Shown piece by piece: positions 34,323-51,674 of a stretch of DNA of 64,000 nucleotides. The position numbers and the translations under genes are program-made. This DNA is from Candidatus Poriferihabitaceae bacterium. Its GTDB lineage: Bacteria > Pseudomonadota > Gammaproteobacteria > Arenicellales > Poriferihabitantaceae. The stretch is from NCBI GenBank assembly GCA_965214205.1, contig OZ243941.1, forward strand, positions 2,225,419-2,289,418, given 5' to 3'. The notes under the pieces were generated by a model. That model was not told the origin of the DNA, made no database searches, and worked only from the letters and a program-made list of their open reading frames with translations. How positions within the stretch are numbered: the stretch's first letter is position 1; each line of letters starts with the position of its first letter.

Positions 34323-34333
34323 GGGGTATCCTC

Positions 34334-34888
34334 CTAATCTATATTACTGAGTTTCTCTGCGGCGACATCACTCGCAGACATCTTGAAAAGTCTGAATACG
34401 CGATACGCTGCAAACAGAGCCATTGCAATACAGGCTATCACCACGATGTAATAGATAACGCTCTTCGGCAAATCGAGCGAGACCATTCTTTGTGATCTGG
34501 TTTTTTGGGCGAGTTCTATTCCCAGCCAGGCCATGTAACCGAACATTCCAAAAACAACGATCTCTACAAATGTTGAAACCGGTTTTATGAGCCCTTCCGG
34601 CAAATATCGGTAGAAAAATTCCAGATAAATGTGTTTACCCTTTCGTACACAACTTACCGAACCGACAAACGCCAGTAGAATCAGGAGATAGCGTGCGATT
34701 TCCTCTGTCCATCCAAGGCTGTCGTTCAATACGTAGCGGGTGAAAAATTGCAGGGCCACGATAATGAATAACAACACAAACACGATCAGCGCTGGAAAAT
34801 CGAGAAGCCCGACATCTGAAATATCATCGGTTACTTCTTCGATTTCACTAAAAACGTCTTCCTTCTCTGAAGCATTTTCATTATTCAT
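34334..34888 (-). CDS. TRAP transporter small permease (DctQ family)
   Basis: The ATG at 34888 is preceded by GAGG. There are four TM helices, and the gene sits between dctP and dctM. Confidence 0.75.
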   Translation of the reverse strand: MNNENASEKEDVFSEIEEVTDDISDVGLLDFPALIVFVLLFIIVALQFFTRYVLNDSLGWTEEIARYLLILLAFVGSVSCVRKGKHIYLEFFYRYLPEGLIKPVSTFVEIVVFGMFGYMAWLGIELAQKTRSQRMVSLDLPKSVIYYIVVIACIAMALFAAYRVFRLFKMSASDVAAEKLSNID

Positions 34889-34923
34889 TGTGTGTAACCT
34901 CTGATCAAAACCGCATGGCGTAT

Positions 34924-34956
34924 GGTCCGCAATTGCCCGCCTTGCAACCGCGGACC
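34924..34956 (-). terminator. Intercistronic hairpin between dctP and dctQ of the second TRAP operon
   Basis: GGTCCGC...GCGGACC forms a 7-bp stem, with additional inner pairing TTGC/GCAA, in the 78-bp dctP-dctQ spacer. Confidence 0.3.
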
Positions 34957-34966
34957 GTATTTTCAA

Positions 34967-35974
34967 TTAGCCAGCGTCAGGAATGGCCTGGAGACGTTCG
35001 TAAACATCGTTGCTAAACGGCATGTCATCTCCGAGTAACGCGGGTTTCACGACATCCATGAATGGCTGGCGATCCACTTCATTGACATTTACACCCTGCC
35101 CCCTGAACCAGTCAACAAGCTCGGCTTCGGATTGGACGATCTGCTCTGTAACCCAGTCAGCGGATTCCTGCAAGGCTTTGATTACAGCGGCGCGGTCCGT
35201 ATCACTCATACCGGACAGGCGTGACCCGGACGCGACGGTCAGGGTTGAGTTTGTGATGTGTCCGGTGAGATTTATGTCAGTTTGTACTTCGTGAAATTTT
35301 TTCGCCTGTATGGTTGGCAGCGGGTTTTCCTGAGCATCCACTACCCCTTGCTGCAACGCAAGATACACTTCCGCGAATGCCATCGGAGTCGGGTTGGCTC
35401 CGGCTGCTTTTGGAAACAACACATAAGCGGGGGCGTTTGGCACCCGGATTTTGACATCCTTGATATCCGCGGGAGTCAGTATGGGTCGGTTTGAGGTAAC
35501 ATGGCGTGTTCCATAATAGCTGATTGCAGTAACCACACTGCCACCGGATGCCTCTGCAAACCCGGCGGACAATTCTTTGAACAAATCACTCTGTCCGTAG
35601 GCTTTCCAGTGATCAAGACTCCGTAGTGTAAAAGGAAAATCCGTAATTGAAATCGGACCGTATATGGATCCGGCAAATCCGGCTCCCGTATAAATGATAT
35701 CTACAGTGCCCAACGTCAGCCCCTCGTTGAGGCCCGCTTCCTTACCTAATGAAGAGGCAGGGAAAACCTCCACCTCATAACGACCTTCAGTAGCCTCGTT
35801 AATAGCCTCGGCTGCCATTAACGCGCCTTTGTGAAGGGGGTGGCCTACCTCATAGACATGAGCGAATTTCAGCTTTTGAGCGGCATGTGAAATACCGAAT
35901 GGCAATGCAAGTAAACTACATGCCAAAGCGCTGAAAAGTACCTTTTTGAACGTATTACGTTTGATTGAATTCAT
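34967..35974 (-). CDS. TRAP transporter substrate-binding protein (DctP family)
   Basis: The ATG at 35974 is preceded by AGGAG. A signal peptide (ALPFGISHAAQ) and DctP-like motifs are present. Confidence 0.85.
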   Translation of the reverse strand: MNSIKRNTFKKVLFSALACSLLALPFGISHAAQKLKFAHVYEVGHPLHKGALMAAEAINEATEGRYEVEVFPASSLGKEAGLNEGLTLGTVDIIYTGAGFAGSIYGPISITDFPFTLRSLDHWKAYGQSDLFKELSAGFAEASGGSVVTAISYYGTRHVTSNRPILTPADIKDVKIRVPNAPAYVLFPKAAGANPTPMAFAEVYLALQQGVVDAQENPLPTIQAKKFHEVQTDINLTGHITNSTLTVASGSRLSGMSDTDRAAVIKALQESADWVTEQIVQSEAELVDWFRGQGVNVNEVDRQPFMDVVKPALLGDDMPFSNDVYERLQAIPDAG

Positions 35975-36030
35975 TTTTCTCCTCGTCATGTTATATCTAA
36001 TGGTTGAATAGTCTGCTGATTTATAGCACA

Positions 36031-36070
36031 ATATAATAAAAAATAAAATATATTTTATTTTTTATTATAT
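36031..36070. promoter_or_regulatory. 40-bp perfect A/T-only palindrome in the divergent dctP / gntR-like promoter region
   Basis: ATATAATAAAAAATAAAATA|TATTTTATTTTTTATTATAT is an exact reverse complement. It lies 57 bp from the dctP start and 64 bp from the regulator start. Confidence 0.6.
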
Positions 36071-36133: not shown

Positions 36134-36868
36134 ATGAAATCAAAGAAACTCAACCTGGTCCGGGAGACTCTGACTCAACAAATTTGTGCGCTGCTCAAGT
36201 CAAAAATCATCAACGGTGAACTGGTGGCGGGCAGCCGCATCTGGGCAGATGAATTGGCAACCCAACTGGAGGTTAGCATCGCCCCGGTCAAGGAAGCGTT
36301 ACTGATCTTGTCGGGTGAAGGACTGATCGTTAATGTCCCTCGGCGCGGCTCTATTGTCCGCAGCTTTACCTACCGGGAAATGTCCGAACTCTACGATGTG
36401 AGGAAATTACTTGAGCTGGAAGCGTTGGAAATCATGTTCAAGCGCTCCTTGATAACCGATGAACTCGTACTTGATCTGCGGGAAATCAATACAAAAATTG
36501 GCAGACTGCGTAAGAACGGAGAGTTCAGGGACAGAAGCGCGGCTTACGAACTGGACTGGAAGTTTCATGAGCGCTTTGTCGCCAGTTGTGAGCATGGGCT
36601 TCTTGCTGAACTGTACGCCAGATTGAATACCCAGGCTCAGATTATTCGTTATTCCAGTTGGAATATCGGGCCTCGCGGCGACAAAACATACTTCGAGCAC
36701 GATGCAATTGTCCAGGCGCTTGCACAAAGAGATATTGCCAATGCCAGGGATGCGATTTCCGCTCATCTTGGTTCCATATTACAGGACTTTGCCAAAACCA
36801 TCGAAAAGGGCGAGCACGGTGATCCAACTCACAACGACGTTGACCTGATCATTAGTGGCCGCAGATAA
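36134..36868 (+). CDS. GntR-family transcriptional regulator (FadR/FCD subfamily)
   Basis: 244 aa with an N-terminal winged HTH (LATQLEVSIAPVKEALLILSGEGLI) and a helical C-terminal FCD-like domain. Confidence 0.85.
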   Translation: MKSKKLNLVRETLTQQICALLKSKIINGELVAGSRIWADELATQLEVSIAPVKEALLILSGEGLIVNVPRRGSIVRSFTYREMSELYDVRKLLELEALEIMFKRSLITDELVLDLREINTKIGRLRKNGEFRDRSAAYELDWKFHERFVASCEHGLLAELYARLNTQAQIIRYSSWNIGPRGDKTYFEHDAIVQALAQRDIANARDAISAHLGSILQDFAKTIEKGEHGDPTHNDVDLIISGRR

Positions 36869-36915
36869 AACGATAAGGTTTGATCATTCGCTTACGCACG
36901 AAACGGTGACTTGAC

Positions 36916-38013
36916 ATGAGTCCTCCAACGATATCGAACGTAACCAACACACTGTTCCGGGTTCCGCTAACTGAAGTGCTCAGTGATGCCAGGCACGGCG
37001 ATCATAGTCACTTTGAGCTGATAACTACGACGATTGAGCTGTCAGATGGAAGTTCGGGAACCGGGTATACCTACACCGGCGGACGTGGAGGCCAGGCGAT
37101 TCTGGCTATGCTTGAGAAGGATTTGAAGACTTTTTTGCTGGACAGGGCTGGTGATGACATTACCCGACTTTACGATCAAATGTTTTGGCATATTCACTAT
37201 GTGGGACGCGGCGGCGTATCTTCGTTTGCAATATCCGCTGTAGATATTGCGCTGTGGGACATCAAAGGCAAAAAAGAGCAAAAACCATTGTGGCAACTGG
37301 CGGGCGGAGCGAACTCCACAACCCGTGCATATTGCGGCGGCATTGATCTCAATTTTTCATTGCAAAAGCTGAAAGCAAATGTATCGGGATACCTTGAGTC
37401 AGGATTTAATGCAGTGAAAATCAAGGTGGGGCAGGAAAGTCTGGATGAAGATGTTGCGCGAGTCGCCGCAATCCGGGAGTTGGCAGGCGAAGATGCCACT
37501 TTCATGGTCGATGCCAACTGTTCCATGTCCGTTGAAAAAGCGATCAGGGCGGCGCAAGCGTTTAAGGAGTTTGATATTTACTGGTTTGAGGAACCCATAG
37601 AGCCGGACAATTACCAGGGCTACGCTGAGATTGCCCGAGCCACGGACATATCCCTGGCGATGGGAGAAAATCTCCATACGATCCATGAGTTCCAGTTTGC
37701 GCTCGACCAATCGAATCTTTCATTTATCCAACCGGACGCTTCCAACTGCGGCGGTATCACCGGCTGGCTTCGTGTGGCGGAACTGGCATTGGAAAAAAAT
37801 ATTCCGGTATGTAGCCACGGCATGCAGGAACTGCATGTCAGTCTGGTTTCAGCACAGCAAAATGCCGGTTGGGTTGAAGTGCACAGCTTCCCGATTGATC
37901 AGTATACGAATCGACCGTTGCAGATCGAAAACTGCCGCGCTGTCGCTCCCGACACTCCGGGAACAGGGGTTGAATTTGATTGGGAGAGACTCTCGCAATT
38001 CAAACTTTCCTAG
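36916..38013 (+). CDS. Enolase-superfamily acid-sugar dehydratase (mandelate racemase subgroup)
   Basis: 365 aa with the KxK motif (VKIKVG). Metal-ligand contexts are MVDAN, WFEEP and MGENL, and a His lies in CSHG. Confidence 0.8.
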
Positions 38014-38115
38014 GCGCCTCCGAATGATATTTGCGTTCAGATTATGTTGAGTGATTTTCTGCATTGCGCCGATTGATTTTCAAGGTTTAGCTTTAACTGT
38101 AATAGAGATTAGCGA

Positions 38116-39147
38116 ATGAAGGCTTCATATTATAATTGTGACAAGACGTTTACTTTAGGCGCATGCAAACCAATCAGTCCCAATCCCGGAGAAGTTCGAA
38201 TCCGGGTAGCCTATTGCGGACTTTGCGGTACTGACTTGCATGTTTATCACGGCAACATGGATGCGCGAGTGGGGTGCGAGAGGATAATCGGACATGAAAT
38301 GTCCGGCATTGTCGATGCGGTCGGGTTGGATATATCCGATATTTCTGTTGGCGACAAGGTTGTAGTGCGGCCATTGGATCACTGTGGTGATTGTCCAGCT
38401 TGTAAAAATGGAAACAGCCACATTTGTCACAATCTGAAGTTTCTCGGACTGGATACCGATGGCGCCTTGCAGCAAAGCTGGACAGTACCCAGGCATACTG
38501 TTCACGTAGTGCCTAAGGAAACTTCTCTCAAACACGCGGCTTTGGTCGAACCGGCTGCCGTGGCCTGCCATGACGTCAATCGGAGCCGATTGGTCGAGGG
38601 TGAGGATGTTCTGATAATCGGCGGCGGCCCGATTGGAATTCTGATTGCAATGGTTGCAAGGCAAAAAGGCGGCAAAATCACAATTTCCGAGGTCAACGAA
38701 CAACGGCTTGCGATAGCCGGAAGACTCGGGTTCAATGCCGTCAACCCGAATAATGTGGATGTTGGCAAATATATGTATGAAACCACCGGCCAGAAAGGCG
38801 CTGACGTCATATTTGAGGTATCGGGAAGCAGTGCAGGCGTGGAATGTATGACATCGGCTGCCGCCGCACGCGCTCGCATTGTTATGGTTGCGATCCACCC
38901 GGTGAAGCCGCCGATTGATCTGTTTCAGTTTTTTTGGCGGGAAATCGAACTTCTGGGCGCGCGCGTTTATACGCCCGATGATTTTGATGCAGCCATTGAG
39001 TTGATTGCATCCGGACAGATCGACTGCGAAGCAATCATCACCAACATTCAACAGCTCGACAAGGTTGGAGAGACGCTGGCGGACCTGAGCATAAACCCGA
39101 AAGCGCTGAAAAGCCTGGTTCAAGTGGGAAGCGAGGCGCCGGCATGA
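38116..39147 (+). CDS. Zinc-dependent medium-chain alcohol/polyol dehydrogenase
   Basis: Motifs are CGLCGTDLHVYHG and GHEMSGIV, the structural-zinc site CGDCPACKNGNSHIC, and the Rossmann motif IIGGGPIG. Confidence 0.85.
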   Translation: MKASYYNCDKTFTLGACKPISPNPGEVRIRVAYCGLCGTDLHVYHGNMDARVGCERIIGHEMSGIVDAVGLDISDISVGDKVVVRPLDHCGDCPACKNGNSHICHNLKFLGLDTDGALQQSWTVPRHTVHVVPKETSLKHAALVEPAAVACHDVNRSRLVEGEDVLIIGGGPIGILIAMVARQKGGKITISEVNEQRLAIAGRLGFNAVNPNNVDVGKYMYETTGQKGADVIFEVSGSSAGVECMTSAAAARARIVMVAIHPVKPPIDLFQFFWREIELLGARVYTPDDFDAAIELIASGQIDCEAIITNIQQLDKVGETLADLSINPKALKSLVQVGSEAPA

Positions 39148-39914
39148 GTGTTCTGGAGCATTTTTCATTAGCCGGGAAAACAGCGTTAGTCACAGGGTGT
39201 AAACGAGGTATCGGCAAGGCCATGGCGTGTGCCCTTGCAGAAGCGGGGGCGGACATTATCGGAGTCAGCGCGACATTGGAGAAAAACGGCAGTGAAGTCT
39301 CGCGGGCCGTATCGTCTCTCGGTCGCAGCTTTACGGGGTATGCCTGTGATTTCAGTGACCGGACTGCGCTGCATGGCTTCCTCCTGGAACTACACGAAAA
39401 CCATTCGACCATTGATATTCTCGTGAATAATGCTGGCACGATCATGCGAGCGCCTGCGGTTGAACACTCTGATGAATACTGGGATACAGTAATTGAAGTA
39501 AACCTGAATGCCCAGTTCATTTTGTCCCGATCTATTGGTAAAAGAATGGTGGACCGAGGGTCCGGAAAAATAATATTCACGGCTTCCCTGCTTACCTTTC
39601 AAGGCGGAATTACTGTCCCCGGATACGCGGCCAGCAAGGGAGCTATCGGGCAGTTGACCAAAGCGCTCGCGAACGAATGGGCGGGAAAAGGCGTGAACGT
39701 AAATGCGATTGCGCCGGGCTACATAAAAACTGACAATACACAGGCGCTCCAGGATGATCCAGTCAGGAATCGGTCCATCCTGGAACGAATCCCCGCTTCC
39801 AGATGGGGCGAACCGGAAGACTTTGCCGGACCCGTTGTTTTTCTGGCATCATCCGCCTCAAACTACATGCACGGTTCGATAATTACAGTTGACGGCGGAT
39901 GGATGAGTCGTTAG
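39144..39914 (+). CDS. kduD: SDR oxidoreductase, KduD-like (2-dehydro-3-deoxy-D-gluconate 5-dehydrogenase family)
   Basis: 256 aa with TGCKRGIGKA, NNAG, YAASKGA and IAPGYIKTDNT. Resemblance to E. coli KduD (from memory) extends to the very end, VDGGWMSR. Confidence 0.7.
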   Translation: MSVLEHFSLAGKTALVTGCKRGIGKAMACALAEAGADIIGVSATLEKNGSEVSRAVSSLGRSFTGYACDFSDRTALHGFLLELHENHSTIDILVNNAGTIMRAPAVEHSDEYWDTVIEVNLNAQFILSRSIGKRMVDRGSGKIIFTASLLTFQGGITVPGYAASKGAIGQLTKALANEWAGKGVNVNAIAPGYIKTDNTQALQDDPVRNRSILERIPASRWGEPEDFAGPVVFLASSASNYMHGSIITVDGGWMSR

Positions 39915-39972
39915 TGAGGGCTGCTGGCGCTAAATCGTTGATGGTAACCGTGTGTCGATAGAATAATTTCGA

Positions 39973-40626
39973 GTGAATTCTGTGATTGATATTGAATCCG
40001 TTCGGTCGCACCCACTGATCCCTGTAATCGAGATCGACAACGCAAAATTCGCACAGCCGCTGGCTGAAGCTGTTTTGAAAGGCGGTATTTCCATTATCGA
40101 GATCGTACTGCGAACTCGCGAAGCCCCGCAAGCAATAGAAATAATTCGTAAGAGTTACCCGGACTGCCTGGTCGGAGCGGGGACTGTGGTCACTCTGGGG
40201 GAAGCGGCAATGGCGTTAAATGCAGGCGCTCAATTTTGTGTCAGCCCGGGAATGGATACGAACATTGCGGATTACTTTCGAGACTGTAATGTTCCTTTTA
40301 TTCCCGGAGTTATCACCCCATCGGAAATACAGACTGCCATGAATCACCACTGCAAACTGTTGAAGTTTTTTCCGGCGAGCGCTGCTGGCGGAGCGCAATT
40401 TCTCAGGGCGATTACCACTCCATTTGCCAGATTCGATGTGCAGTTTTGTGCAACAGGTGGCGTGACACCGGAGAATATGAATCAATACCTCGAAATACCG
40501 GATGTTTGTTCGGTCGGAGGTACATGGTTCGCATCCGCAGAACAAATCAGGAATCAGGACTGGAAAGCTATAACCCGGCAGGTTTCTCTGGCTCGAGCTC
40601 GTCTTGCACAGAAACCGGAGCGTTAG
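39973..40626 (+). CDS. eda: 2-dehydro-3-deoxyphosphogluconate / 4-hydroxy-2-oxoglutarate aldolase
   Basis: 217 aa with IPVIEID, IEIVLRT, LLKFFPASAAGG and CATGGV, which are typical of Eda. It has a GTG start. Confidence 0.8.
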   Translation: MNSVIDIESVRSHPLIPVIEIDNAKFAQPLAEAVLKGGISIIEIVLRTREAPQAIEIIRKSYPDCLVGAGTVVTLGEAAMALNAGAQFCVSPGMDTNIADYFRDCNVPFIPGVITPSEIQTAMNHHCKLLKFFPASAAGGAQFLRAITTPFARFDVQFCATGGVTPENMNQYLEIPDVCSVGGTWFASAEQIRNQDWKAITRQVSLARARLAQKPER

Positions 40627-40629
40627 ACG

Positions 40630-41544
40630 ATGGCGGATATAGTTTGTTTGGGCGAACCGCTCATTGAGTTCAATCAAAAGGAACAAGGTGAAATCGTCAA
40701 GGGTTTCGGTGGGGACACTTCAAACTGTGCGATTTCAGCGGCCCGCCAAGGCGCAAATGTCGCTTATATCTCCCGTATCGGAAGTGACCGATTCGGAGAC
40801 GACCTGATTGCGTTATGGGAAGAAGAAGGAATCGACACATCGCAAATCACTCGGGATTCGACCGCTCCTACAGGAATATATTTTGTTTCGCATGATGAAC
40901 AGGGGCATCACTTCTCATATTACCGAAAACACTCAGCCGCAACAAAAATCAAACCACAGCATTTGTCACCCTCATATATCGCAGACGCGCAAATTCTCCA
41001 CGTTTCAGCCATAAGCCAGGCGATCAGTTCATCCGCGGCGGACTCGGTATTTGCCGCAATCGAGATCGCAAACAACAATGGGACCAGACTTTCGTATGAT
41101 ACAAACCTGAGGTTGAACCTGTGGCCCGAGGAAAGAGCGCGGGCAATCGTACATGAAGCGATGAAACACTGTTATATTGCCCTGCCAAGCATTGAGGACG
41201 CGAAAGTTTTGTCAAAATTAGCCGACCCTGACCGGATTGTCGATTTTTATCACGATCTGGGCGCTGAAATAGTGGTTCTGAAACTGGATCGCGAAGGCGC
41301 TATTGTCTCTACCGATTCGAAACGAAAAAAAGTCGCTGGCATCCGGGTAAACAGTATCGACGCAAATGGCGCGGGGGATACTTTTGCGGGAGCCATACTG
41401 GCTGAACTGGTCAGAGGCCAGGACCCCTTTGAGGCGACTGCATACGCGAACATTGCAGCGGCGTTATCGACCTGCTCGGATGGCGCGGTAAATGCAATAC
41501 CCAATCGCTCACAAACTGAAGCATTTTTCAGTTCCGGCAAATAG
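40630..41544 (+). CDS. kdgK: 2-dehydro-3-deoxygluconokinase (PfkB family)
   Basis: 304 aa with PfkB motifs GGDTSNCAI, DTNLRLNLW and DANGAGDTFAGA. Confidence 0.8.
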   Translation: MADIVCLGEPLIEFNQKEQGEIVKGFGGDTSNCAISAARQGANVAYISRIGSDRFGDDLIALWEEEGIDTSQITRDSTAPTGIYFVSHDEQGHHFSYYRKHSAATKIKPQHLSPSYIADAQILHVSAISQAISSSAADSVFAAIEIANNNGTRLSYDTNLRLNLWPEERARAIVHEAMKHCYIALPSIEDAKVLSKLADPDRIVDFYHDLGAEIVVLKLDREGAIVSTDSKRKKVAGIRVNSIDANGAGDTFAGAILAELVRGQDPFEATAYANIAAALSTCSDGAVNAIPNRSQTEAFFSSGK

Positions 41545-41578: not shown

Positions 41579-42589
41579 ATGAACAACAACGACCACCATC
41601 GCTATTCGAACTTGATCGAAGAGCTTGGTTTGGGACGCAGGGAGGATATCCGGACCATTGACCCTTTGTCCGGCGGTGTCTCTTCCAACATCGTCAGGGT
41701 AACCGTGGGAGGCCAGACATTTTGCCTGAAGTGCGCCCTCGAAAAATTGAGAGTTGAACAGGAATGGCGAGCGCCGGTCCATCGAAACGCGGCGGAATAT
41801 GCTTGGCTGGAAGTGGCGTCCCGGGTAAATCCGACGGGCTCGGTAAAATTACTCGGGAAGTCGAATGAAGAGCCCTGCTATGCCATGGAGTACATGGGAG
41901 GGAGCGGTATCTACCTGTGGAAAACTCGCTTGCTGGCAGGGATGGTTTCAACTACTGAAGCGCAGAGAGTTGGCGAATCCATAGGCCGGATCCATTCAGC
42001 ATCGACCCGCAAAGAGTTTTCGACCCTCGCATTTGAAAACCGCGATGATTTTCACCAAATTCGCCTGGACCCCTACCTGATTTTCACTGCATCCAGGCAC
42101 CCTCAACTTGCGGATGTCCTGCTCCGGATGGCAGAGCGGCTCTATGAAGCAGACTCGGTATTGATTCACGGAGATGTCAGCCCCAAGAACATCCTGTTTC
42201 GCGGCGGCCATCCTGTTATATTGGATGCGGAATGCGCCACCATGGGCGACCCCTGCTTCGATTTGGCGTTTTGCCTGAACCACCTGATATTGAAGGCAAT
42301 TCACCTCCCGGCAATTCGCCGGAAACTATTCGAAAGCGCGGTACTACTGTGGGACGCATACGCCTCCGGGGTTGACTGGGAGGACGCGGATCAACTTCAG
42401 ATGAGGGTTTGCGATCTTCTACCCATACTGATGCTGGCCCGGATCGATGGCAAATCACCTGTTGAGTATCTGAATAAAAATAACCGCGAACAGGTACGAA
42501 ATATTTCAATTCAAATGATCAAAAAAAGATCAACCGATCTGCGAAGTCTGTTTGGTTGTATTTCATCAGAACTGGAGAGAATCCCCTGA
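41579..42589 (+). CDS. Phosphotransferase-family kinase resembling methylthioribose kinase (MtnK/APH fold). Substrate unknown.
   Basis: 336 aa from the ATG at 41579. Motifs are LSGGVSSNIVRV, CLKCALEKLRVEQEW and the catalytic-loop LIHGDVSPKNILF, followed by ILDAECATMGDPCFDLAF. Confidence 0.65.
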   Translation: MNNNDHHRYSNLIEELGLGRREDIRTIDPLSGGVSSNIVRVTVGGQTFCLKCALEKLRVEQEWRAPVHRNAAEYAWLEVASRVNPTGSVKLLGKSNEEPCYAMEYMGGSGIYLWKTRLLAGMVSTTEAQRVGESIGRIHSASTRKEFSTLAFENRDDFHQIRLDPYLIFTASRHPQLADVLLRMAERLYEADSVLIHGDVSPKNILFRGGHPVILDAECATMGDPCFDLAFCLNHLILKAIHLPAIRRKLFESAVLLWDAYASGVDWEDADQLQMRVCDLLPILMLARIDGKSPVEYLNKNNREQVRNISIQMIKKRSTDLRSLFGCISSELERIP

Positions 42590-43902
42590 TGACCGCAATT
42601 ACAAACATTGTCAGCAGGAGAGTTTGGGATTCGAGGGGAAATCCAACAGTCGAAGTGGATGTCATACTGGAAGACGGAGTTGCAGGCCGCGCAATTGCGC
42701 CGGCAGGAGCATCGAGAGGCGCTCGGGAAGCGATTGACCTGAGAGATGGCGGTCAATCGCTGCGGGGGATGAATGTGCAACGGGCCTTGAAGTCCGTAAA
42801 TGAACGCATCGCCCCTGCGCTGACCGGCTTGGACGTCGAAGATCAGGCTGGCATCGACAAAGCCATGTTGGACCTGGACCAGACGCCGATGAAATCCGTA
42901 TTGGGTGGTAACGCTACAATAGCCGTATCTCTTGCCGCCGTTCACGCCGCGGCAAAATCCTCAAACACTCCCCTTTGGCGGCACATAGCGGATGTATTCG
43001 GATATAAGCCCCTGATCCCTTTGCCGGAAATTCAGATTTTCGGAGGTGGAGCGCATGCCGCCCAACGGGTTGATATCCAGGACTTCATGGTGATGGTTCC
43101 CGGCGCATCCAGTTTCGAAGAGGTCATGGAAATCACCAGCGAAATCTATTTTGCCGCAGGCGATATTATGAAAAGGCGCGGTCTGTTGGCAGGTGTTGCG
43201 GATGAAGGAGGATGGTGGCCGGAATTTCGAGGGAACGAAGAGGCGCTGGAGACACTGGTTCAGGCCATCGAAATCGCGGGAGAGAAACCGGGAGACCGCG
43301 TTGTTATCTCACTGGATGTTGCCGCCTCTGAGTTTAAGGATGGAGACAGGTATCGACTGGCGCTGGATGACCGGGAACTGGATAGCCCGGCGCTCATCGA
43401 AATGCTTGGGAAGTGGCTGGATGATTATCCGATCGCTTCAATTGAAGACCCGCTCGCGGAAGATGATGTCGAGGGTATGGTTGAATTCACTCAACGTTTT
43501 GGTGACCATGTGCTAATCATAGGCGATGACTATGTGGTCACCAACGCAGGTTTAATTGAGCGGGCATCCCGGGACGGCGCCTGCAACACGGCATTACTCA
43601 AAGTCAATCAGGCGGGAACGCTGACAGAGACAGTAGCCGCTTATGAGGCTGCCAATTCGGCAGGCTGGAAATCAGTCGTTTCCTCCAGATCAGGAGAAAC
43701 GGAAGATGTCACTATAAGCCATTTGGCGACAGGGTTGGGCAACGGCCAACTCAAAGTGGGTTCCTTTACCCGGTCAGAGCGCATGGCCAAGTGGAATGAA
43801 TGCCTGCGCATACAGGAAACGCTGGGCGTCACCGCTTTTGCCGGAGGCGCTGCCCTGGATGGAACCTGGTGGCAAAAGAATCAAGGCCGGAAGAAAGTCT
43901 GA
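42589..43902 (+). CDS. Enolase-family protein (phosphopyruvate-hydratase paralogue with substitutions at two catalytic positions)
   Basis: 437 aa with SRGNPTVEVDV, ADEGGW, LDVAASEF, SIEDPLAEDD, IGDDYVVTN, LLKVNQAGTLTET and SRSGETED. Its start ATG overlaps the kinase stop (TGATG), and GGAGAGA lies upstream. Confidence 0.85.
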   Translation: MTAITNIVSRRVWDSRGNPTVEVDVILEDGVAGRAIAPAGASRGAREAIDLRDGGQSLRGMNVQRALKSVNERIAPALTGLDVEDQAGIDKAMLDLDQTPMKSVLGGNATIAVSLAAVHAAAKSSNTPLWRHIADVFGYKPLIPLPEIQIFGGGAHAAQRVDIQDFMVMVPGASSFEEVMEITSEIYFAAGDIMKRRGLLAGVADEGGWWPEFRGNEEALETLVQAIEIAGEKPGDRVVISLDVAASEFKDGDRYRLALDDRELDSPALIEMLGKWLDDYPIASIEDPLAEDDVEGMVEFTQRFGDHVLIIGDDYVVTNAGLIERASRDGACNTALLKVNQAGTLTETVAAYEAANSAGWKSVVSSRSGETEDVTISHLATGLGNGQLKVGSFTRSERMAKWNECLRIQETLGVTAFAGGAALDGTWWQKNQGRKKV

Positions 43903-43936
43903 GGATGGTCAAATTGGCTCGAATAAGGTCCCGGAC

Positions 43937-45112
43937 TTGACATACACAACAGAGAAATTCCTGTCACACGGCTTCCGGCCTTTCTTCCTGTTGGCCGGGC
44001 TGTGGGCGCTGATCGGCATGGCGCTCTGGTTGACGATGTTGCGGGGGCATATCATTCTGCCGAGCGCGTTCGACCCGGTGTCGTGGCATGCGCATGAAAC
44101 ACTGTTCGGCTATCTGGGAGCGGCGCTCGCCGGATTCCTGTTGACTGCCGCGCCCAACTGGACAGGACGCCCACCGCTTTCCGGGTGGCCTTTGCTGGGG
44201 CTGGTCACACTCTGGCTGTTCGGCCGGGTTGCTATTGCCGTGTCGGACCAGATGTCGCCCTTGACAGTCGCCGCGCTTGACCTCTCCTGCCATATCGTTC
44301 TGGTCGGCTACATGTTGCGCGAAATCGTCGCGACCAGCAACTGGCGGAACCTCGCGGTCATCGCGGTCATCGCCATATTTATCATCGGCAACGGGCTGTT
44401 CCATTGGCAAGCCGCCCACGGCGGCTATGCGGCGTCGGGTTATGGGTTGCGCCTTGGCCTCGCCGCTGCAATCATGATGATCTCGCTTATTGGCGGGCGC
44501 ATCGTACCCTTGTTTACCCGCAACTGGCTGGCGGCGCAAGGCCGCGAGACCCTGCCCGCAAAATTCGGACGACTCGACCAGCTTGCCCTCGCCCTTACCC
44601 TGCTCGCCCTGCTTGCCTGGGTTGCCCTCCCCGTTGCGGCGGCAACAGGAGGGCTCCTGCTCGCCTCGGGCCTTGTACAAAGCGGGCGACTCTTGCGCTG
44701 GCGTGGCCAGGACACGCACCGTGAACCCTTACTCTGGATTCTGCACCTGGGATACGCCTTTGTGCCGCTCGGAATGCTGGCGCTGGCGGCGGCAATCCTG
44801 TTGCCCGGTACAATCCCGTCCGCGTCTGCCCAGCATATCTGGATGGCCGGCGCCATCGGCGTCATGACCCTCGCTGTGATGACCCGCGCAACGCTGGGAC
44901 ACACCGGGCAGAAGTTGACGGCAGGCGCAGGAACCGTAGTAGTCTACCTGCTGGTCATCGCCTCGGCGCTGATCCGGCTTGCGGGAGACGCGCTGCCGGA
45001 ATGGAAGATGCTACTCTGGACTCTATCAGCCATCCTCTGGTGCTGCGGATTCGCCGGGTTCGCGCTGCTCTACGGACGCCTGCTGGTTGCCCCGGCCCAG
45101 CGGAACTCTTGA
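43937..45112 (+). CDS. nnrS: NnrS-family membrane protein
   Basis: The N-terminal LSHGFRPFFLLAGLWA and a multi-TM His-containing body are typical of NnrS. The start is uncertain. The TTG at 43937 gives 391 aa (family-typical), while the ATGs at 43796 and 43859 would overlap the enolase gene. Confidence 0.75.
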   Translation: MTYTTEKFLSHGFRPFFLLAGLWALIGMALWLTMLRGHIILPSAFDPVSWHAHETLFGYLGAALAGFLLTAAPNWTGRPPLSGWPLLGLVTLWLFGRVAIAVSDQMSPLTVAALDLSCHIVLVGYMLREIVATSNWRNLAVIAVIAIFIIGNGLFHWQAAHGGYAASGYGLRLGLAAAIMMISLIGGRIVPLFTRNWLAAQGRETLPAKFGRLDQLALALTLLALLAWVALPVAAATGGLLLASGLVQSGRLLRWRGQDTHREPLLWILHLGYAFVPLGMLALAAAILLPGTIPSASAQHIWMAGAIGVMTLAVMTRATLGHTGQKLTAGAGTVVVYLLVIASALIRLAGDALPEWKMLLWTLSAILWCCGFAGFALLYGRLLVAPAQRNS

Positions 45113-45255: not shown

Positions 45256-47211
<1,956 letters not shown>

Positions 47212-47313
47212 TAGGCTCTGAAAGTTCAAAAAAAGCAACCGCATATTATACCCTGAAACCAGGGGAAAAGCAATCGAAATTCAGGCCTGTCCTCTTAAAG
47301 TACAGCACGATCA

Positions 47314-49095
47314 TCAACCCCGCGGACTCCGGACTCTTGTTTTCAGCAGTTCATTCAGTTCTTTCGATTCTTCCGGGGTCAGCTCCGATTGCCGCGCCTT
47401 TTCCAGCAATTTCCGTCTGTGCAAATCGTAATGCTCTTCGAGCAGATGGCTCAGGGTATCCCTGAATTGCTTCTCCAGCACATTCTCGTCAATCAGGTTG
47501 GAACGCATCGCCAGTTTCCCCAGATAACCATGCGCCGGCGTCTCCCGGAAAGACTCCAGCAACCCGGCGGTAGTCAGGTCGGGCTGGTTCCTGGACCGTT
47601 CAATGATTTCTGTCAGGACATCCGCTCCGGGGATTTGCAGTTGCTTCAACTCGCCCGGATTGTCCACTGATTGCGTCAGTCCGGGATTTTGCAGGAGCAG
47701 GCTGACGGCGAGCGCCAGCGGGGATATCTGACCATCCTGGACCTGCCCGGCTTGCGGGCGCCCCCTCAATCCCGGCGACGCCCCGCCGGTCGATGCGGCT
47801 ATTTCCGCGAACCGGCTTTCGGGCAGCCCGGTCAATGACGCGAGCTCTGAATTCATCATATCCCTGAATACCCCGTCCGGCAACTGTTCAATCAATGGCA
47901 ACGCCTGGTTGACCAGAGACGCCTTGCCGTCCGCCCGGTTCATGTCCACCCGGGAGGTCAGGGTATTGAACAGAAAATCAGGTAACGACAGCGCGTTGTC
48001 CACCCTTTCAATGAACGCCTCGGCGCCTTCGGCGCGCACCATGGTATCCGGGTCCTGGCCTTCGGGCAGAAACAGGAATCCGGCCTGGCGGCCATCCCGC
48101 ATTTCAGGAAGCGAAACCTCCATCGCCTTCCAGGCCGCGTCCCGGCCCGCGCGGTCGCCGTCAAAACAAAATACGATTTCCGGCGCCAAGCGGAACAGGC
48201 GTTGCAGGTGGGTTCGAGTGGTCGCGGTTCCAAGAGTCGCTACCGCGTTGTTCACCCCGAACTGGGCCAGACTGACCACATCCATATAGCCCTCCACCAC
48301 AATGCTTTTGTTCCGGATACCGGTCTCCCGGCGGGCGCGATGCAGTCCGTAGAGTTCCGCGCCCTTGTGAAATAACGGGGTTTCCGGGGAGTTCAGGTAT
48401 TTGGGGTTGCCGTCACCCAGCGCCCGGCCGCCAAAGCCGGCGACCCGGCCTCTGTGATCTTCAATCGGGAACATGACGCGCCCCCGAAATCGGTCGTAGT
48501 ACCGGGCCTTTTCATCGCCTTCCTTCTGTTTGATCAGTCCTGCCTTAAGTAATTGCTCCCGTAACCGGGCGCTGGCGCCGAGAGCGTCGGTCAGACCGCT
48601 CCAACTGTCCGGGGCATACCCGATCCCGAAGTCCGCGGCCACCTTGCCGTCCAGCCCCCTGGATTTCAGGTAGTCAATAGCCCGCTTGGCTTCGGGATGG
48701 TTTCGCAACTGTTTTTGAAACCAGCGATTCGCCTGTTCGATCACTTCCCGTCGCTGGTCCTGACTTTCCCTGTCGGGGGATGGCCTCGCAAAGCCTCTGT
48801 CCGGCAGTTCCATTCCGACTCCGTTGGCCAGGTCTTCGACCGCTTCCACAAACCCCAGGTTGGCATAGTCCATCAGAAATCCGATCACGGTGCCGTGTGC
48901 GCCGCAACCGAAACAATGATAGAACTGTTTAACGGGGCTGACCGTAAACGACGGGGTTTTCTCTTCATGAAAAGGGCAGCAGGCGATATATTCCCGGCCT
49001 TTGCGAGTCAGGGGCACCCGCCGGTCAATCACGTCAACAATATCTGCCCGGGCAATCAGGTCATCTATGAAGGATTTAGGAATATTGCCTGCCAT
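47314..49095 (-). CDS. dnaG: DNA primase
   Basis: 593 aa with the zinc ribbon CCPFHEEKTPSFTVSPVKQFYHCFGCGAHG, a TOPRIM region (VVEGYMDV, FDGDRAGR) and a C-terminal helicase-interaction domain. Confidence 0.95.
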   Translation of the reverse strand: MAGNIPKSFIDDLIARADIVDVIDRRVPLTRKGREYIACCPFHEEKTPSFTVSPVKQFYHCFGCGAHGTVIGFLMDYANLGFVEAVEDLANGVGMELPDRGFARPSPDRESQDQRREVIEQANRWFQKQLRNHPEAKRAIDYLKSRGLDGKVAADFGIGYAPDSWSGLTDALGASARLREQLLKAGLIKQKEGDEKARYYDRFRGRVMFPIEDHRGRVAGFGGRALGDGNPKYLNSPETPLFHKGAELYGLHRARRETGIRNKSIVVEGYMDVVSLAQFGVNNAVATLGTATTRTHLQRLFRLAPEIVFCFDGDRAGRDAAWKAMEVSLPEMRDGRQAGFLFLPEGQDPDTMVRAEGAEAFIERVDNALSLPDFLFNTLTSRVDMNRADGKASLVNQALPLIEQLPDGVFRDMMNSELASLTGLPESRFAEIAASTGGASPGLRGRPQAGQVQDGQISPLALAVSLLLQNPGLTQSVDNPGELKQLQIPGADVLTEIIERSRNQPDLTTAGLLESFRETPAHGYLGKLAMRSNLIDENVLEKQFRDTLSHLLEEHYDLHRRKLLEKARQSELTPEESKELNELLKTRVRSPRG

Positions 49096-49202
49096 ATCCT
49101 GAATTGTACTGTATACCGGAGAGCCGCTCGCCAGGATTATGTACGCATACCGGGTTAATCGGTTAGAATTCGTGCCCTTGAACAGTTCGAACCCGCTTCC
49201 TT

Positions 49203-51674
49203 ATGATCGACAAATACAACCCTGCTGAAATCGAGTCCGCGGCCCAGCAATACTGGGACGACAGACAAAGCTTTGCAGTGTCGGAAGATACGGATCGTGA
49301 AAAATACTACTGTCTTTCCATGCTACCCTACCCTTCAGGGAAGTTGCACATGGGGCATGTCCGCAATTATACCATCGGCGATGTGATCAGCCGTTATCAG
49401 CGTATGCTCGGCAAGAATGTATTGCAACCAATGGGTTGGGACGCCTTCGGATTACCCGCGGAGAACGCTGCGATCGCACATCGGACACCGCCGGCAAAAT
49501 GGACCAACGCGAACATTGATTACATGCGAACCCAGTTAAAACGCCTCGGCTTTGGTTACGACTGGAATCGTGAACTGTCCACCTGTTCACCCGAATACTA
49601 TCGCTGGGAACAATGGTTCTTCAACAGGCTGCTTGAGAAAAACCTGGCCTACAAGAAAATGGCGGTGGTCAACTGGGACCCGGTGGAACAGACGGTACTC
49701 GCCAATGAGCAGGTCGAAAACGGCCGGGGCTGGCGTTCGGGGGCGATTGTAGAACGCCGGGAAGTCTCTCAATGGTTCATCCGGATTACCGATTACGCGG
49801 AAGAATTACTGGATGAAATCGACCGCCTTGAAGGCTGGCCGGACGCGGTTCGCACTATGCAGCGCAACTGGATCGGCCGTTCCGAAGGGGTTGAATTCTC
49901 ATTCCGGATTGAGGGTGAAGAACCACTGGAAGTCTATACCACCCGGCCCGACACGATCATGGGAATCACCTTTATTTCGGTGGCCGCGGAACACCCCCTG
50001 GCATTGAAAGCGGCCGCGGACAATCCGGATGTGGCCGCGTTCGTCCAATCCTGCAAGAATGTCCATGCCACGGAAAAGGAGATGGAAACCATGGAAAAGA
50101 AAGGCATTCCTCTCGGCATAACCGGGATTCACCCGGTCAGCGGCGAGAAAGTCGGCATCTGGGCGGCGAATTTTGTTCTGATGGAATACGGTACCGGCGC
50201 CATCATGGCGGTACCTGCCCATGACCAGAGAGACTGGGAGTTCGCGACCAGACACGGCATCGAGATCAGGCCGGTAATCCGCCCCGCGGACGGCAGCGAA
50301 CATGATTTCAGCCAATCCGCGCTGACTACAAAGGAAGGAGTCACATGCAACTCGGGAGCGTTCGACGGACTCGACTACGGCGCGGCCTGCGAGGCCGTTG
50401 CCGATTACCTCGAAACCCACAGAGTCGGCAGAAAAACCATAAACTACCGGCTGCGGGACTGGGGCGTATCTCGCCAGCGATACTGGGGCTGCCCGATTCC
50501 GGTGGTATACGACGACGGTGAGGTATTTGCCGTACCCGACGACGAGTTGCCCGTACTGCTGCCGGAAGACGTCGAATTCTCCGGGGTCCAATCACCGATC
50601 CAGAATGATCCGGATTTTTATAACGCCACACTGCCCGACAGCGACCGGCCCGCCATACGCGAGACCGACACATTCGACACCTTTTTCGAGTCATCGTGGT
50701 ATTACGCCCGTTATTGCTGTCCCGGCTCGGACCATGCGATGCTGGACGAGCGCGCCAATTACTGGCTCCCCGTGGACCAGTATGTCGGAGGGATCGAACA
50801 CGCCGTACTGCACCTGCTGTACGCGCGTTTCTTCCATAAACTGATGCGGGATGTCGGCCTGGTCGACAGTGATGAACCTTTCACCAACCTGCTCTGCCAG
50901 GGTATGGTCCTGAAAGACGGCTCCAAGATGTCCAAATCAAAGAACAATACGGTCGATCCGCAGTCGATGATCGACAAGTATGGCGCGGACACGGTCCGGC
51001 TGTTCATGATGTTCGCATCGCCCCCGGAACAGCCGCTGGAGTGGAATGACGACGCGGTAGCGGGTTCCTTCCGTTTCCTGAAACGCTGGTGGGCGCTGGT
51101 TCACCGCAGCATCGAATCGGTGGCGGAAGCCAGACGGTTATCGTCCGACCCGGACCGGGTCGCTGCGGGTAGCGTCGACCGGGAAGCCAGGGAGTTGCGC
51201 CGGATCACTCACCGGATTCTGGAAAAAGCGGACCGGGATTACCAGAGAATCCACTACAATACGGTGGTCGCTGGGGCGATGGAACTGCTCAATTCACTGG
51301 ACCGGTTCGACCCCGGAAAAAATCAGGATTGCCGGTCGGCCTTTCGGGAAAGCCTGGTCATTCTGAACAAGATTCTGGCCCCCATCGCGCCGCACATTGC
51401 CCACCGGTTGTGGCATGTGATGGGAGAGGCCGGTGATGTGCTGGACGCGGACTGGCCCCGGGTGGACCGGCAGGCGCTGCAAAGCGATACGGTCAAATGG
51501 GTCATCCAGGTCAACGGCCGGCTGAGAAGCGAGATCGAACTGGCCGCCGATTGCAGCGAGCGGGAGATCCGCGACATGGCCGTAGCAGACCGCAGAATCC
51601 GGAATTTCATCGGAGACGCTGAAGTCAGAAAAATCATCATCGTCCCCGCAAAGCTGATCAATATCGTGATTTAG
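49203..51674 (+). CDS. leuS: Leucine--tRNA ligase
   Basis: 823 aa with the HIGH motif ([15 protein letters not shown]) and the KMSKS motif ([10 protein letters not shown]). Confidence 0.97.

Follow-up and report, generated by a model that had tools for sequence, protein, structure and literature searches.

Several described systems resemble the gene pair studied here, in which a small-molecule kinase is encoded next to an enolase paralogue. Canonical enolase (EC 4.2.1.11, TIGR01060) shares both of its domains with the paralogue, which keeps D246, E290, D317, Lys342, Lys393, Glu209, Arg371/Ser372, His159 and Ser42 (E. coli numbering). However, Glu168 is replaced by Asp, Gly207 by Ala and His370 by Ala (Ser in the window, which means the whole stretch of 64,000 nucleotides that was analysed). 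These changes are fixed throughout the clade of the paralogue, called D/A here, and unlike canonical enolase this clade is kinase-linked, accessory and often plasmid-borne. To our knowledge, the enolase subgroup is otherwise regarded as isofunctional. The kinase has the bilobal APH-type fold and the HGDxxxxN catalytic loop of methylthioribose kinase, MtnK (2pul, 2pyw), but it is about 60 residues shorter, only 14-16% identical, and falls below the equivalog model.

Glycerate 2-kinase and enolase act together in the non-phosphorylative Entner-Doudoroff, serine-cycle and glycerate pathways. The net conversion proposed here, from glycerate through 2-phosphoglycerate (2-PG) to phosphoenolpyruvate (PEP), is the same, and the suppliers are similar (aldehyde dehydrogenase, hydroxypyruvate reductase and sugar-acid cleavage). 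The known glycerate kinases form three classes (PMC2063504). In contrast to the kinases of those pathways (GckA/MOFRL, GlxK/GarK), the kinase of the pair has a fold unrelated to the three classes and travels with a dedicated, active-site-modified enolase. The non-phosphorylative L-rhamnose/L-fucose route (the 4-dehydrogenase LRA5 and the 2,4-diketo-3-deoxy-aldonate hydrolase LRA6) is also related, since the FAH protein linked to the pair in many loci is closest to LRA6 and the linked SDR to SDR dehydrogenases. The known route ends in pyruvate and L-lactate and needs neither a kinase nor an enolase, whereas a hexose analogue would end in glycerate, in the L form if the stereochemistry were retained. 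In class V lanthipeptide dehydration, the APH-fold kinase LxmK activates a hydroxyl compound for the eliminating partner LxmY. There the substrate is a peptide and phosphate leaves, whereas in the present pair the product should retain the phosphate. The original prediction that no described pathway pairs these two families agreed with our literature search, in which neither the pair nor an APH-type glycerate kinase, an L-glycerate kinase or L-2-PG metabolism was described. In the CpgD papers, L-2-PG was merely a test substrate.

The gene pair and its operon in the window

The following features were located in the window:

33042-36031, minus strand: putative TRAP transporter DctP, DctQ, DctM, divergent (by eye, with related DctP/DctM Pfam matches in locus L085)
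36134-41544, plus strand: upstream genes of the sugar-acid operon (Pfam, NCBIfam), encoding a GntR/FCD regulator, a mandelate-racemase-type acid-sugar dehydratase, a Zn-ADH, a KduD-like SDR, a KDPG/KHG aldolase and a PfkB KDG kinase
41579-42589, plus strand: APH/MtnK-fold small-molecule kinase, 336 aa (Pfam, fold match)
42167-42190, within the kinase gene: catalytic loop HGDVSPKN
42574-42591, plus strand: translational coupling of kinase and enolase (read from the sequence)
42589-43902, plus strand: enolase paralogue of the D/A clade, 437 aa (Pfam, TIGR01060, residue survey)
43081-43083, enolase codon: Asp165, in place of Glu168
43198-43200, enolase codon: Ala204, in place of Gly207
43684-43686, enolase codon: Ser366, in place of His370/373

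The coordinates, lengths and all motifs quoted in the original prediction were present in the sequence. The kinase stop codon TGA (42587-42589) shares its A with the enolase ATG (42589-42591) in a TGATG overlap, and GGAGAG lies at 42574-42579, 9 nt ahead of this ATG. Most related loci likewise had the two genes overlapping or separated by a short gap. Both genes were under purifying selection, with dN/dS of 0.11-0.15 for the enolase and 0.15-0.22 for the kinase. No canonical enolase was found within the 64-kb window. Sampled sequence words were absent from one run with the same species label, presumed to be RNA and kept as contigs.

The kinase matched Pfam APH (PF01636) with 67.6 bits, and no other Pfam family was found in it. 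GGVSS forms its Gly-rich loop, the Lys lies in CLK and DAE binds Mg; RLDPY and ARIDGKSPVEYL are motifs specific to this family. H197-G-D199...N204 and D216 were invariant in alignments A2 and A3, as expected for the APH superfamily. MtnK (MTRK, TIGR01767) was its top NCBIfam match, though at 33.9 bits where the cut-off is 275, and the match spanned only residues 177-242, the catalytic loop. The AF2 model had a pLDDT of 91.3, and its best Foldseek matches were again MtnK (TM 0.82-0.84), with LxmK also among the structural matches. It was thus borne out that the protein is MtnK-like in fold and is not a true methylthioribose kinase. A PDB sequence search found no relative, and the database names were all generic. 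No glycerate-kinase model appeared in the NCBIfam output, and no homology to GlxK/GarK, MOFRL/GckA or GLYK was found. The kinase lies outside the three known glycerate kinase classes, yet it may work like one.

The paralogue matched PF03952 Enolase_N (159 bits) and PF00113 Enolase_C (285 bits), and it scored 463 bits against TIGR01060, where the cut-off is 300. Its identity to canonical enolases was about 45-47%, with an overall range of 41-47%, and a PDB sequence search found no solved structure from the D/A clade. Judged by its residues, it is a member of this large, old and deeply diverged clade. Three columns (E168D, G207A and H370A) tell this clade apart from canonical enolases. Glu168 and His370 were present in 76 of 76 canonical representatives, while the D/A clade had Asp in 100% and Ala, Gly or Ser at 370. 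Alignment to solved canonical enolases confirmed the reading of IQDFM for QEFM and of SSRSGE for SHRSGE. Asp168 was found in 200/200 close relatives of the window enolase. The proposed loss of the catalytic His373 held for all close relatives, but the state of the family is Ala (199 of 200 at position 370) and Ser is peculiar to the window enolase; even relatives 89-96% identical to it have Ala. The third systematic change, G207A (ADEGG for GDEGG), had not been singled out in the original prediction. The proteobacterial part of the clade has Val/Ile at 394 and Tyr/Phe at 319.

The window enolase keeps S42, H156, Q164, E206, D243, E286, D313, K338, R367, S368 and K389. In the 200 relatives there was no variation at the Mg ligands, the two lysines (Lys345 and Lys396 in yeast numbering), Glu209 (yeast Glu211) and the phosphate-binding Arg and Ser (yeast Arg374/Ser375), and almost every listed D/A representative retains them. 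Since the other catalytic, metal and phosphate residues are conserved, the paralogue should work by proton abstraction and beta-elimination as canonical enolase does.

The pair had been described as the end of a sugar-acid operon. This was correct for the window, where the 34-nt gap ahead of the kinase holds no terminator-like site in a promoter/terminator scan whose counts were at shuffle level. It is not intrinsic to the pair, as this context was common only to locus L001, and partly to L019, among the matches listed. The operon is a lineage-specific context outside the conserved module. The TRAP_M/Q/P homologues in L001 were 91-97% identical to those of the window, and the transporter probably supplies the sugar-acid operon. 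The upstream aldolase had also been proposed as a source of glycerate. This was not supported, since KDG kinase and KDPG aldolase yield pyruvate and glyceraldehyde-3-phosphate, and the operon is therefore no obvious glycerate source.

Linkage and neighbours of the pair across genomes

A D/A enolase-kinase module was defined as an enolase with Asp168 and Ala/Gly/Ser370 next to a kinase homologue, and the window qualifies. The counts from genome-collection scans apply among the matches listed. Among 80 species-level loci from alpha-, beta- and gammaproteobacteria, 75 had the kinase directly upstream of the D/A enolase and another 3 had it within 10 kb. It was also beside 17/19 distant D/A loci (Acidobacteriota, Planctomycetota, Bacteroidota, Chloroflexota), whereas it was beside 0/66 canonical-enolase loci in the same scan. 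Starting from the kinase, an adjacent enolase was found in 60 of 79 loci, including those of haloarchaea, acI Actinobacteria, Spirochaetes, Firmicutes and Vibrio; the other 19 kinase homologues had no enolase nearby. All 60 adjacent enolases had Asp168, with 58 of the D/A type, 2 with Val370 and none canonical. In addition, the two proteins were fused into a single chain in P0127 (770 aa) and P0200 (745 aa). The prediction that the genes co-occur elsewhere was supported, as the pair occurs in at least about 150 species of more than 10 phyla. The pairing is far beyond chance, and the kinase and the D/A enolase are an obligate two-gene module. In at least A. brasilense Sp7, the paralogue coexists with a canonical enolase, and several species carry the paralogue on a plasmid. 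The carriers include marine Roseobacter-group bacteria, streamlined freshwater acI Actinobacteria, rhizobial plasmids and a Burkholderia pseudomallei plasmid.

Neighbour families were compared within 5 kb of 153 non-redundant D/A loci and 67 canonical loci. The D/A loci were enriched in SDR (26% vs 0%), FAH (17% vs 3%), IlvD (7% vs 1%), LacI (7% vs 0%), aldehyde dehydrogenase (6% vs 1%), D-2-hydroxyacid dehydrogenase (4% vs 0%) and CdaR (2% vs 0%). Carboxylate transporters (TTT, TRAP) and LacI/GntR regulators were frequent neighbours. In Roseibium and Hoeflea, overlapping kinase, enolase and FAH genes were followed by an SDR, and Paracoccus had the same order. The linked FAH was closest to the solved L-2,4-diketo-3-deoxyrhamnonate hydrolase LRA6 (8gsr), with 277 bits over its full length. 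Enzymes of the LRA6 class release pyruvate and a 2-hydroxy acid, which would be glycerate when the substrate is a hexonate. Aldehyde dehydrogenase, kinase and enolase stood in this order in Vibrio hannami and Flammeovirga. The enolase was followed by 2-Hacid_dh in two loci (L173, L224), and CdaR-type regulators adjoined the pair in three (L175, L183, L209). Rhizobium indicum had the order ppc, CtBP-type dehydrogenase, kinase; this ppc linkage was confined to one lineage among the matches listed. More than 70% of the loci had no informative context, and in Acidobacteria and Planctomycetes the pair lay amid unrelated genes.

Proposed function and rival explanations

The FAH and SDR genes together with the IlvD, aldehyde dehydrogenase, D-2-hydroxyacid dehydrogenase, CdaR and ppc neighbours pointed to a path from glycerate through 2-phosphoglycerate, or a similar compound, to PEP. 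From the neighbours alone, we infer a glycerate-type acid as the substrate. On balance, the pair seems to be a self-contained catabolic module that converts a glycerate-type 2,3-dihydroxy acid to an enol phosphate, most probably PEP. The MtnK-fold kinase would phosphorylate the 2-hydroxyl of glycerate with ATP. The paralogue, as its retained residues suggest, would then hold the 2-phospho acid via the two-Mg site, the Arg/Ser phosphate site and Lys389. Lys338 would take the C2 proton and Glu206 would expel the C3 hydroxyl to give PEP. The module could be plugged into whichever host pathway delivers glycerate: hydrolysis of a diketo-deoxy-hexonate by the LRA6-like FAH with the SDR, oxidation of glyceraldehyde by aldehyde dehydrogenase, or reduction of hydroxypyruvate by D-2-hydroxyacid dehydrogenase. 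In the window, it would be appended to an operon running from acid-sugar to KDG and KDPG. FAH/SDR/IlvD/aldehyde dehydrogenase sets also resemble pentose pathways, which lead to glycolate or 2-oxoglutarate and not to glycerate.

The remodelled leaving-group side (E168D, G207A, H370A/S) and the obligate coupling indicated that the intermediate may bypass the housekeeping enolase. The intermediate may then be either a non-canonical compound (an isomer or analogue, L-2-phosphoglycerate for instance) or D-2-PG that is channelled within a kinase-enolase complex. More tentatively, the D/A clade could be the first branch of the enolase subgroup to differ in function, dehydrating a 2-phospho acid that the housekeeping enolase cannot use; the best candidate would be L-2-phosphoglycerate from an L-glycerate 2-kinase, an assignment that we consider possible but doubtful. 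If the intermediate were ordinary D-2-PG, a dedicated enolase would have no explanation. If it were L-2-PG, the D-specific 2-hydroxyacid dehydrogenases and CdaR regulators would fit poorly.

The same logic of phosphorylation and elimination might serve an acid other than glycerate, which we regard as rather unlikely. It could be a 2,3-dihydroxy acid of four or more carbons (threonate, erythronate, 2,3-dihydroxybutanoate or tartrate), its C3 substituent occupying the space freed by H370A and E168D. It could also be 3-sulfolactate, from which sulfite would leave to give PEP and sulfite, as in phosphosulfolactate synthase run in reverse. It is exactly around C3 and the leaving group that the substitutions widen the pocket, residues 394 and 319 are Val/Ile and Tyr/Phe in the proteobacterial clade, and TTT/TRAP carboxylate transporters and LacI/GntR regulators are often nearby. 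For sulfolactate in particular, a TauE-like permease (identified by eye) lies two genes off in Xanthobacteraceae, a sulfite-oxidase-type Mo enzyme lies beside L103, a TauD-family gene lies upstream in L004, and sulfatases occur among the neighbours. However, these sulfur-related neighbours were few and each was limited to one lineage. Glu209, which acts as general acid in the loss of OH, never varies, and residue 168 is always a carboxylate; both points argue that hydroxide still leaves. No new cationic residue for a sulfonate or carboxylate was gained, and the sulfite idea was down-weighted for these two reasons. The FAH route from common hexoses would also give a C3 acid.

The original prediction had left two options, a second glycolytic enolase or a phosphorylate-then-dehydrate step on a glycerate-type acid. 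The linkage, the fusions, the non-MtnK character of the kinase and the presence of a canonical enolase besides the paralogue in at least A. brasilense Sp7 favoured the step on a glycerate-type acid. That the paralogue is a second isofunctional enolase acting on free D-2-PG, with the D/A residues as a neutral lineage marker and an unrelated role for the kinase, is improbable. It passes the TIGR01060 equivalog cut-off, nearly all catalytic residues are kept, E to D is conservative, and some genomes do have additional enolases, such as the one on A. brasilense p3. Nevertheless, the residues at 168 and 370 separate the two groups without exception, and the cross-phylum adjacency, its absence from canonical loci and the in-frame fusions argue against an unrelated role for the kinase. 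It is more improbable still that the APH-fold protein is a protein kinase regulating its partner. The APH/ePK-like fold includes Ser/Thr protein kinases, and LxmK, which phosphorylates peptide Ser/Thr ahead of elimination, is among the closest matches; a regulator fused 1:1 to its target and sitting in catabolic operons would be unusual, and the invariant Arg/Lys outside the ATP motifs appear to fit a small anionic substrate. Least credible of all is a role for the kinase in a salvage pathway, acting on methylthioribose or 5-deoxyribose. MtnK provides the nearest folds and the top NCBIfam match, but the score is far below the cut-off, the matched region is the catalytic loop alone and the identity is low. 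No methionine-salvage gene (mtnA etc.), MtnA-type isomerase or aldolase homologue stood out among the recurrent neighbour families of about 240 loci, of which the cluster representatives were Pfam-scanned.

Implications of the module

Automatic annotation names the paralogue as the glycolytic 'phosphopyruvate hydratase' and the kinase as an 'aminoglycoside phosphotransferase', and under these names a widespread module goes unnoticed. Should the kinase prove to phosphorylate glycerate, it would be a fourth, unrelated class of glycerate kinase and would fill gaps in reconstructed non-phosphorylative sugar and sugar-acid catabolism. If the intermediate is L-2-PG, bacteria and haloarchaea would have a stereo-convergent route from L-glycerate, derived for example from L-galactose or L-mannose via LRA5/LRA6-like enzymes, to achiral PEP. 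A new substrate for the paralogue would break the view that the enolase subgroup has a single function, and the D/A clade would then offer a natural experiment on what Glu168 and His373 do.

The coupled gene pair and its kinase

The ORF listing and translation gave two genes:

41579-42589, kinase gene, 336 aa
42589-43902, enolase-family gene (the paralogue), 437 aa

The TGA stop codon of the kinase gene (42587-42589) and the ATG start codon of the enolase gene (42589-42591) had one A in common, and GGAGAG was located nine bases 5' of this ATG. The existence of a coupled pair, as in the original prediction, was borne out by the ORFs, translation and stop/start overlap, and all of the peptide motifs quoted with it were found in the translations. 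The kinase matched the Pfam APH phosphotransferase family with 67.6 bits. The enolase-family protein matched Enolase_N (159 bits) and Enolase_C (285 bits), and exceeded the NCBIfam equivalog cut-off of TIGR01060 (463 bits vs 300). Compared with the relatives L001-L005, both genes were under purifying selection (dN/dS 0.11-0.15, enolase; 0.15-0.22, kinase).

An NnrS-family membrane protein was encoded 3' of the enolase (43796-45112). Its longest ORF ran into the enolase 3' end with an overlap of ~100 nt. Since the Pfam match began at residue 55, the true start is probably past the enolase stop. Genes resembling rpoD (662 aa), dnaG (593 aa) and leuS (823 aa), recognized by eye from translations, were located beside the island (45256-51674). 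Because these housekeeping genes flank the island, the pair is chromosomal in the window.

An AlphaFold2 model of the kinase with 30 homologues gave a pLDDT of 91.3 and a pTM of 0.90. The top Foldseek matches were the methylthioribose kinases 2pul and 2pyw (TM 0.82-0.84, 14-16% identity), followed by PsiK and then the lanthipeptide kinase LxmK. The sequence gave no significant match in the PDB, and all 120 of the best database relatives had only generic names. The HGDxSPKN catalytic loop, the Mg-binding Asp216 and the family-specific RxDPY and ARxDGKSPxEY motifs were conserved across phyla. Assignment as MtnK itself was rejected, as the NCBIfam MtnK model gave only 33.9 bits against a cut-off of 275. 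In fold the kinase resembles MtnK, yet it is not one.

Residues and clade of the enolase paralogue

Identity of the paralogue was 45% to E. coli enolase and 41-47% across canonical enolases generally. Residues were surveyed in 200 close relatives (79 from species-level genomes, 120 from database clusters, plus the window), using E. coli numbering. Glu168 was replaced by Asp in all 200. His370, which corresponds to yeast His373, was replaced by Ala in 199, and Ser was found in the window only. The relatives at 89-96% identity (L001-L005) had Ala at this position, and the Ser codon of the window (43684-43686) differed from it by a single GCC/TCC-type change. Thr394 was replaced by Val in 199 of the 200, and Leu319 by Tyr or Phe. 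The rest of the catalytic apparatus was conserved: Ser42, His159, Gln167, Glu209, Asp246, Glu290, Asp317, Lys342, Arg371, Ser372 and Lys393 were unchanged. In yeast enolase, Lys345 takes the C2 proton, and Glu211 protonates the departing C3 hydroxyl with the aid of Glu168, His373 and a bound water. By this established mechanism, only the leaving-group side is altered; the sites for proton abstraction, metal and phosphate are intact.

HMMER was run exhaustively against 1.84 billion cluster representatives. Of the best 150, about 45 combined Asp168, Ala/Gly370 and Val/Ile394, the most distant with 39% identity to the query. We refer to enolases with Asp168 and Ala (Gly or Ser) at 370 as D/A. When 38 D/A and 76 canonical sequences were compared, the consensus (at least 70% in both groups) was remodelled at three residues only, E168D, G207A and H370A. 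The mean identity was 42% within D/A sequences and 41% between D/A and canonical enolases. In a neighbour-joining tree, D/A sequences were mostly separate from canonical ones, with one exception. Judged from these sequences, the paralogue belongs to a distinct, old enolase clade. A PDB sequence search found no solved structure in this clade. A variant with Val at 370 and Asn at 394 was observed in two Acidobacteriaceae/Terriglobales loci (L230 and L247), where it still adjoined kinase, SDR and FAH genes.

Linkage of the kinase and the paralogue

With the window enolase as query, 80 loci were collected from alpha-, beta- and gammaproteobacteria and one Desulfocapsaceae. The gene immediately 5' of the enolase was a kinase homologue in 75; three others (L019, L021, L040) had one within 10 kb, and two had none. 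An alignment of distant D/A enolases was used for a second scan. It returned 66 canonical loci, none of which had the kinase within 8 kb, and 14 D/A loci from Bryobacterales, Terriglobia, Planctomycetota, Chitinophagaceae, Sphingobacterium, Dehalococcoidia and Singulisphaera. Together with five plasmid loci fetched earlier, the kinase was nearby in 17 of these 19 distant D/A loci. The reverse scan, with a kinase alignment as query, covered Atribacterota, Planctomycetota, Acidobacteriota, Chloroflexota, Spirochaetota, Verrucomicrobiota, Armatimonadota and Bacteroidota, as well as acI Actinobacteria, Firmicutes, Vibrio hannami and three haloarchaeal lineages. An adjacent enolase was found in 60 of 79 loci. 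All 60 had Asp168; 58 were of the D/A type, two had Val at 370 and none was canonical. Kinase and enolase were fused in frame, with the D/A(G) signature, in two proteins from the database, P0127 (770 aa) and P0200 (745 aa); P0121 was a partial fusion. The kinase and the paralogue form an obligate module.

In the other 19 kinase-side loci, the kinase homologue stood alone. Kinase homologues with no enolase closer than 6 kb (L170, L174, L179, L181, L185, L194, L197, L201, L206, L210, L214, L217, L218, L221, L223, L225, L246) may be a paralogous subfamily with another role. In several Dehalococcoidia, the genes next to the homologue encoded luciferase-like monooxygenase, lumazine synthase and AIM24.

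The paralogue is an accessory gene. Among the collected plasmids, a clear identity gap separated paralogues (56-70%) from canonical enolases (47% or less). Plasmid- or chromid-borne paralogues were found in Roseibium aggregatum, Sinorhizobium, several Rhizobium, Paracoccus seriniphilus, Azospirillum brasilense, Cupriavidus, Paraburkholderia and Burkholderia pseudomallei TSV202. A. brasilense Sp7 carried the kinase and a D/A enolase on p1, and a canonical enolase (DIQEFMV, SHRSGE, QIKTG) beside pflB, pta and ackA on p3. The p3 gene (L166, 4001-5278), between pflB and pta/ackA, is an enolase copy in a fermentation cluster. No canonical enolase was found within the 64-kb window.

Neighbouring genes and predicted function

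The following genes were located 5' of the kinase:

33042-36031, TRAP transporter, divergent from the operon
36134-41544, same strand as the kinase: GntR/FCD regulator, mandelate-racemase (MR)-type acid-sugar dehydratase, Zn-ADH, KduD-like SDR (334 bits vs cut-off 339), KDPG aldolase (Eda), PfkB KDG kinase (KdgK)

Co-transcription of the kinase gene with this operon is plausible because the gap from the KDG kinase gene was 34 nt and a scan found no terminator-like site in it. The TRAP/GntR/MR-type dehydratase/Zn-ADH/SDR/Eda/KdgK set resembles pathways from L-configured aldonates (L-galactonate, L-gulonate or L-idonate type) to KDG, in which C5 oxidation and reduction are followed by dehydration. 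Apart from the window, this operon was found only in L001 and in part in L019, so the proposed tie of the pair to it proved incidental. In other Arenicellales, the pair was preceded by genes for a peptide ABC transporter and S15 peptidase or for AstE/aldehyde-DH/TauD, or it adjoined a DHDPS-type aldolase. Since the setting differs, the pair is mobile relative to its surroundings. A separate FAH-family gene (30114-30917, 267 aa) was located 11 kb upstream of the pair. Its top NCBIfam match was 2,4-didehydro-3-deoxy-L-rhamnonate hydrolase (219 bits, under the cut-off), and homologues were near the pair in L002 and L005.

Neighbour families within 5 kb, 153 non-redundant D/A loci vs 67 canonical loci
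SDR: D/A 26%, canonical 0%
FAH: D/A 17%, canonical 3%
IlvD/Edd dehydratase: D/A 7%, canonical 1%
LacI: D/A 7%, canonical 0%
Aldehyde dehydrogenase: D/A 6%, canonical 1%
D-2-hydroxyacid dehydrogenase: D/A 4%, canonical 0%
CdaR: D/A 2%, canonical 0%

In Roseibium and Hoeflea, LacI was followed by kinase–enolase–FAH–SDR–sugar ABC transporter–SDR, with genes overlapping or nearly abutting; Paracoccus had the same order with short gaps. The B. pseudomallei cluster contained SDR, two UxuA, GntR, SDR, SMP-30 lactonase, FAH, kinase, enolase, sugar ABC transporter and RraA, and that of acI Actinobacteria aldehyde DH, SDR, SDR, kinase, enolase, IlvD, FAH and aldehyde DH. For the pair-linked FAH, the solved L-2,4-diketo-3-deoxyrhamnonate hydrolase was a full-length match with 277 bits (next entry 184), and the NCBIfam scores were 352-426 bits. 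In the L-rhamnose/L-fucose routes, an LRA6-type hydrolase and its partner 4-dehydrogenase split the diketo acid into pyruvate and a C4-C6 fragment, a 2-hydroxy acid. From a 6-hydroxylated hexonate, this fragment would be glycerate.

Other settings were also observed. The order aldehyde DH–kinase–enolase in Vibrio hannami and Flammeovirga fits conversion of glyceraldehyde to glycerate. A D-2-hydroxyacid dehydrogenase directly 3' of the enolase, in one Dehalococcoidia and one Haloarculaceae genome, fits conversion of hydroxypyruvate to D-glycerate. CdaR-type regulators adjoined the pair in two Spirochaetes and one Enterocloster; in E. coli, this family governs glucarate, galactarate and glycerate genes. 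On the Rhizobium indicum plasmid pPR12A204 (L082), the phosphoenolpyruvate carboxylase gene (ppc), a CtBP-type dehydrogenase and the kinase were in one string, which places a PEP consumer beside the kinase. The D/A enolase of this plasmid was separated from the string by 5.6 kb, and its operon also contained cupin, VOC, ADH and ABC transporter genes. The aldehyde DH, D-2-hydroxyacid dehydrogenase, CdaR and ppc settings, independent of one another, converge on glycerate.

The best-supported reading is the second interpretation of the original prediction, in which a related 2-hydroxy acid, possibly a glycerate-type one, would be phosphorylated and then dehydrated. The kinase would phosphorylate O2 of glycerate, and the paralogue would form PEP by an enolase-type anti-elimination of water. 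Retention of Glu209 and a carboxylate at 168 argues that hydroxide is still the leaving group, which counts against sulfolactate or similar substrates. A private enolase might serve a phosphorylated intermediate other than D-2-phosphoglycerate (D-2-PG), or D-2-PG might be channelled within a kinase–enolase complex. L-2-PG is attractive as an intermediate because LRA5/LRA6-like enzymes (4-dehydrogenase and diketo-acid hydrolase) are known from routes for L-configured sugars, and because PEP has no stereocentre. The LRA6-like context speaks for L-glycerate, whereas the D-specific dehydrogenases and CdaR regulators speak for D-glycerate.

In predicted function, the module is like the glycerate kinase and enolase segment of the non-phosphorylative Entner-Doudoroff, serine-cycle and glycerate pathways. 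Three glycerate kinase classes have been described (PMC2063504), and the module's kinase is outside all of them. The paralogue differs from EC 4.2.1.11 in two defining catalytic residues. Literature searches found no publication on the kinase–enolase pair. The pair may have a new activity within the enolase subgroup, and the distribution of the module is unusually broad for something uncharacterised.
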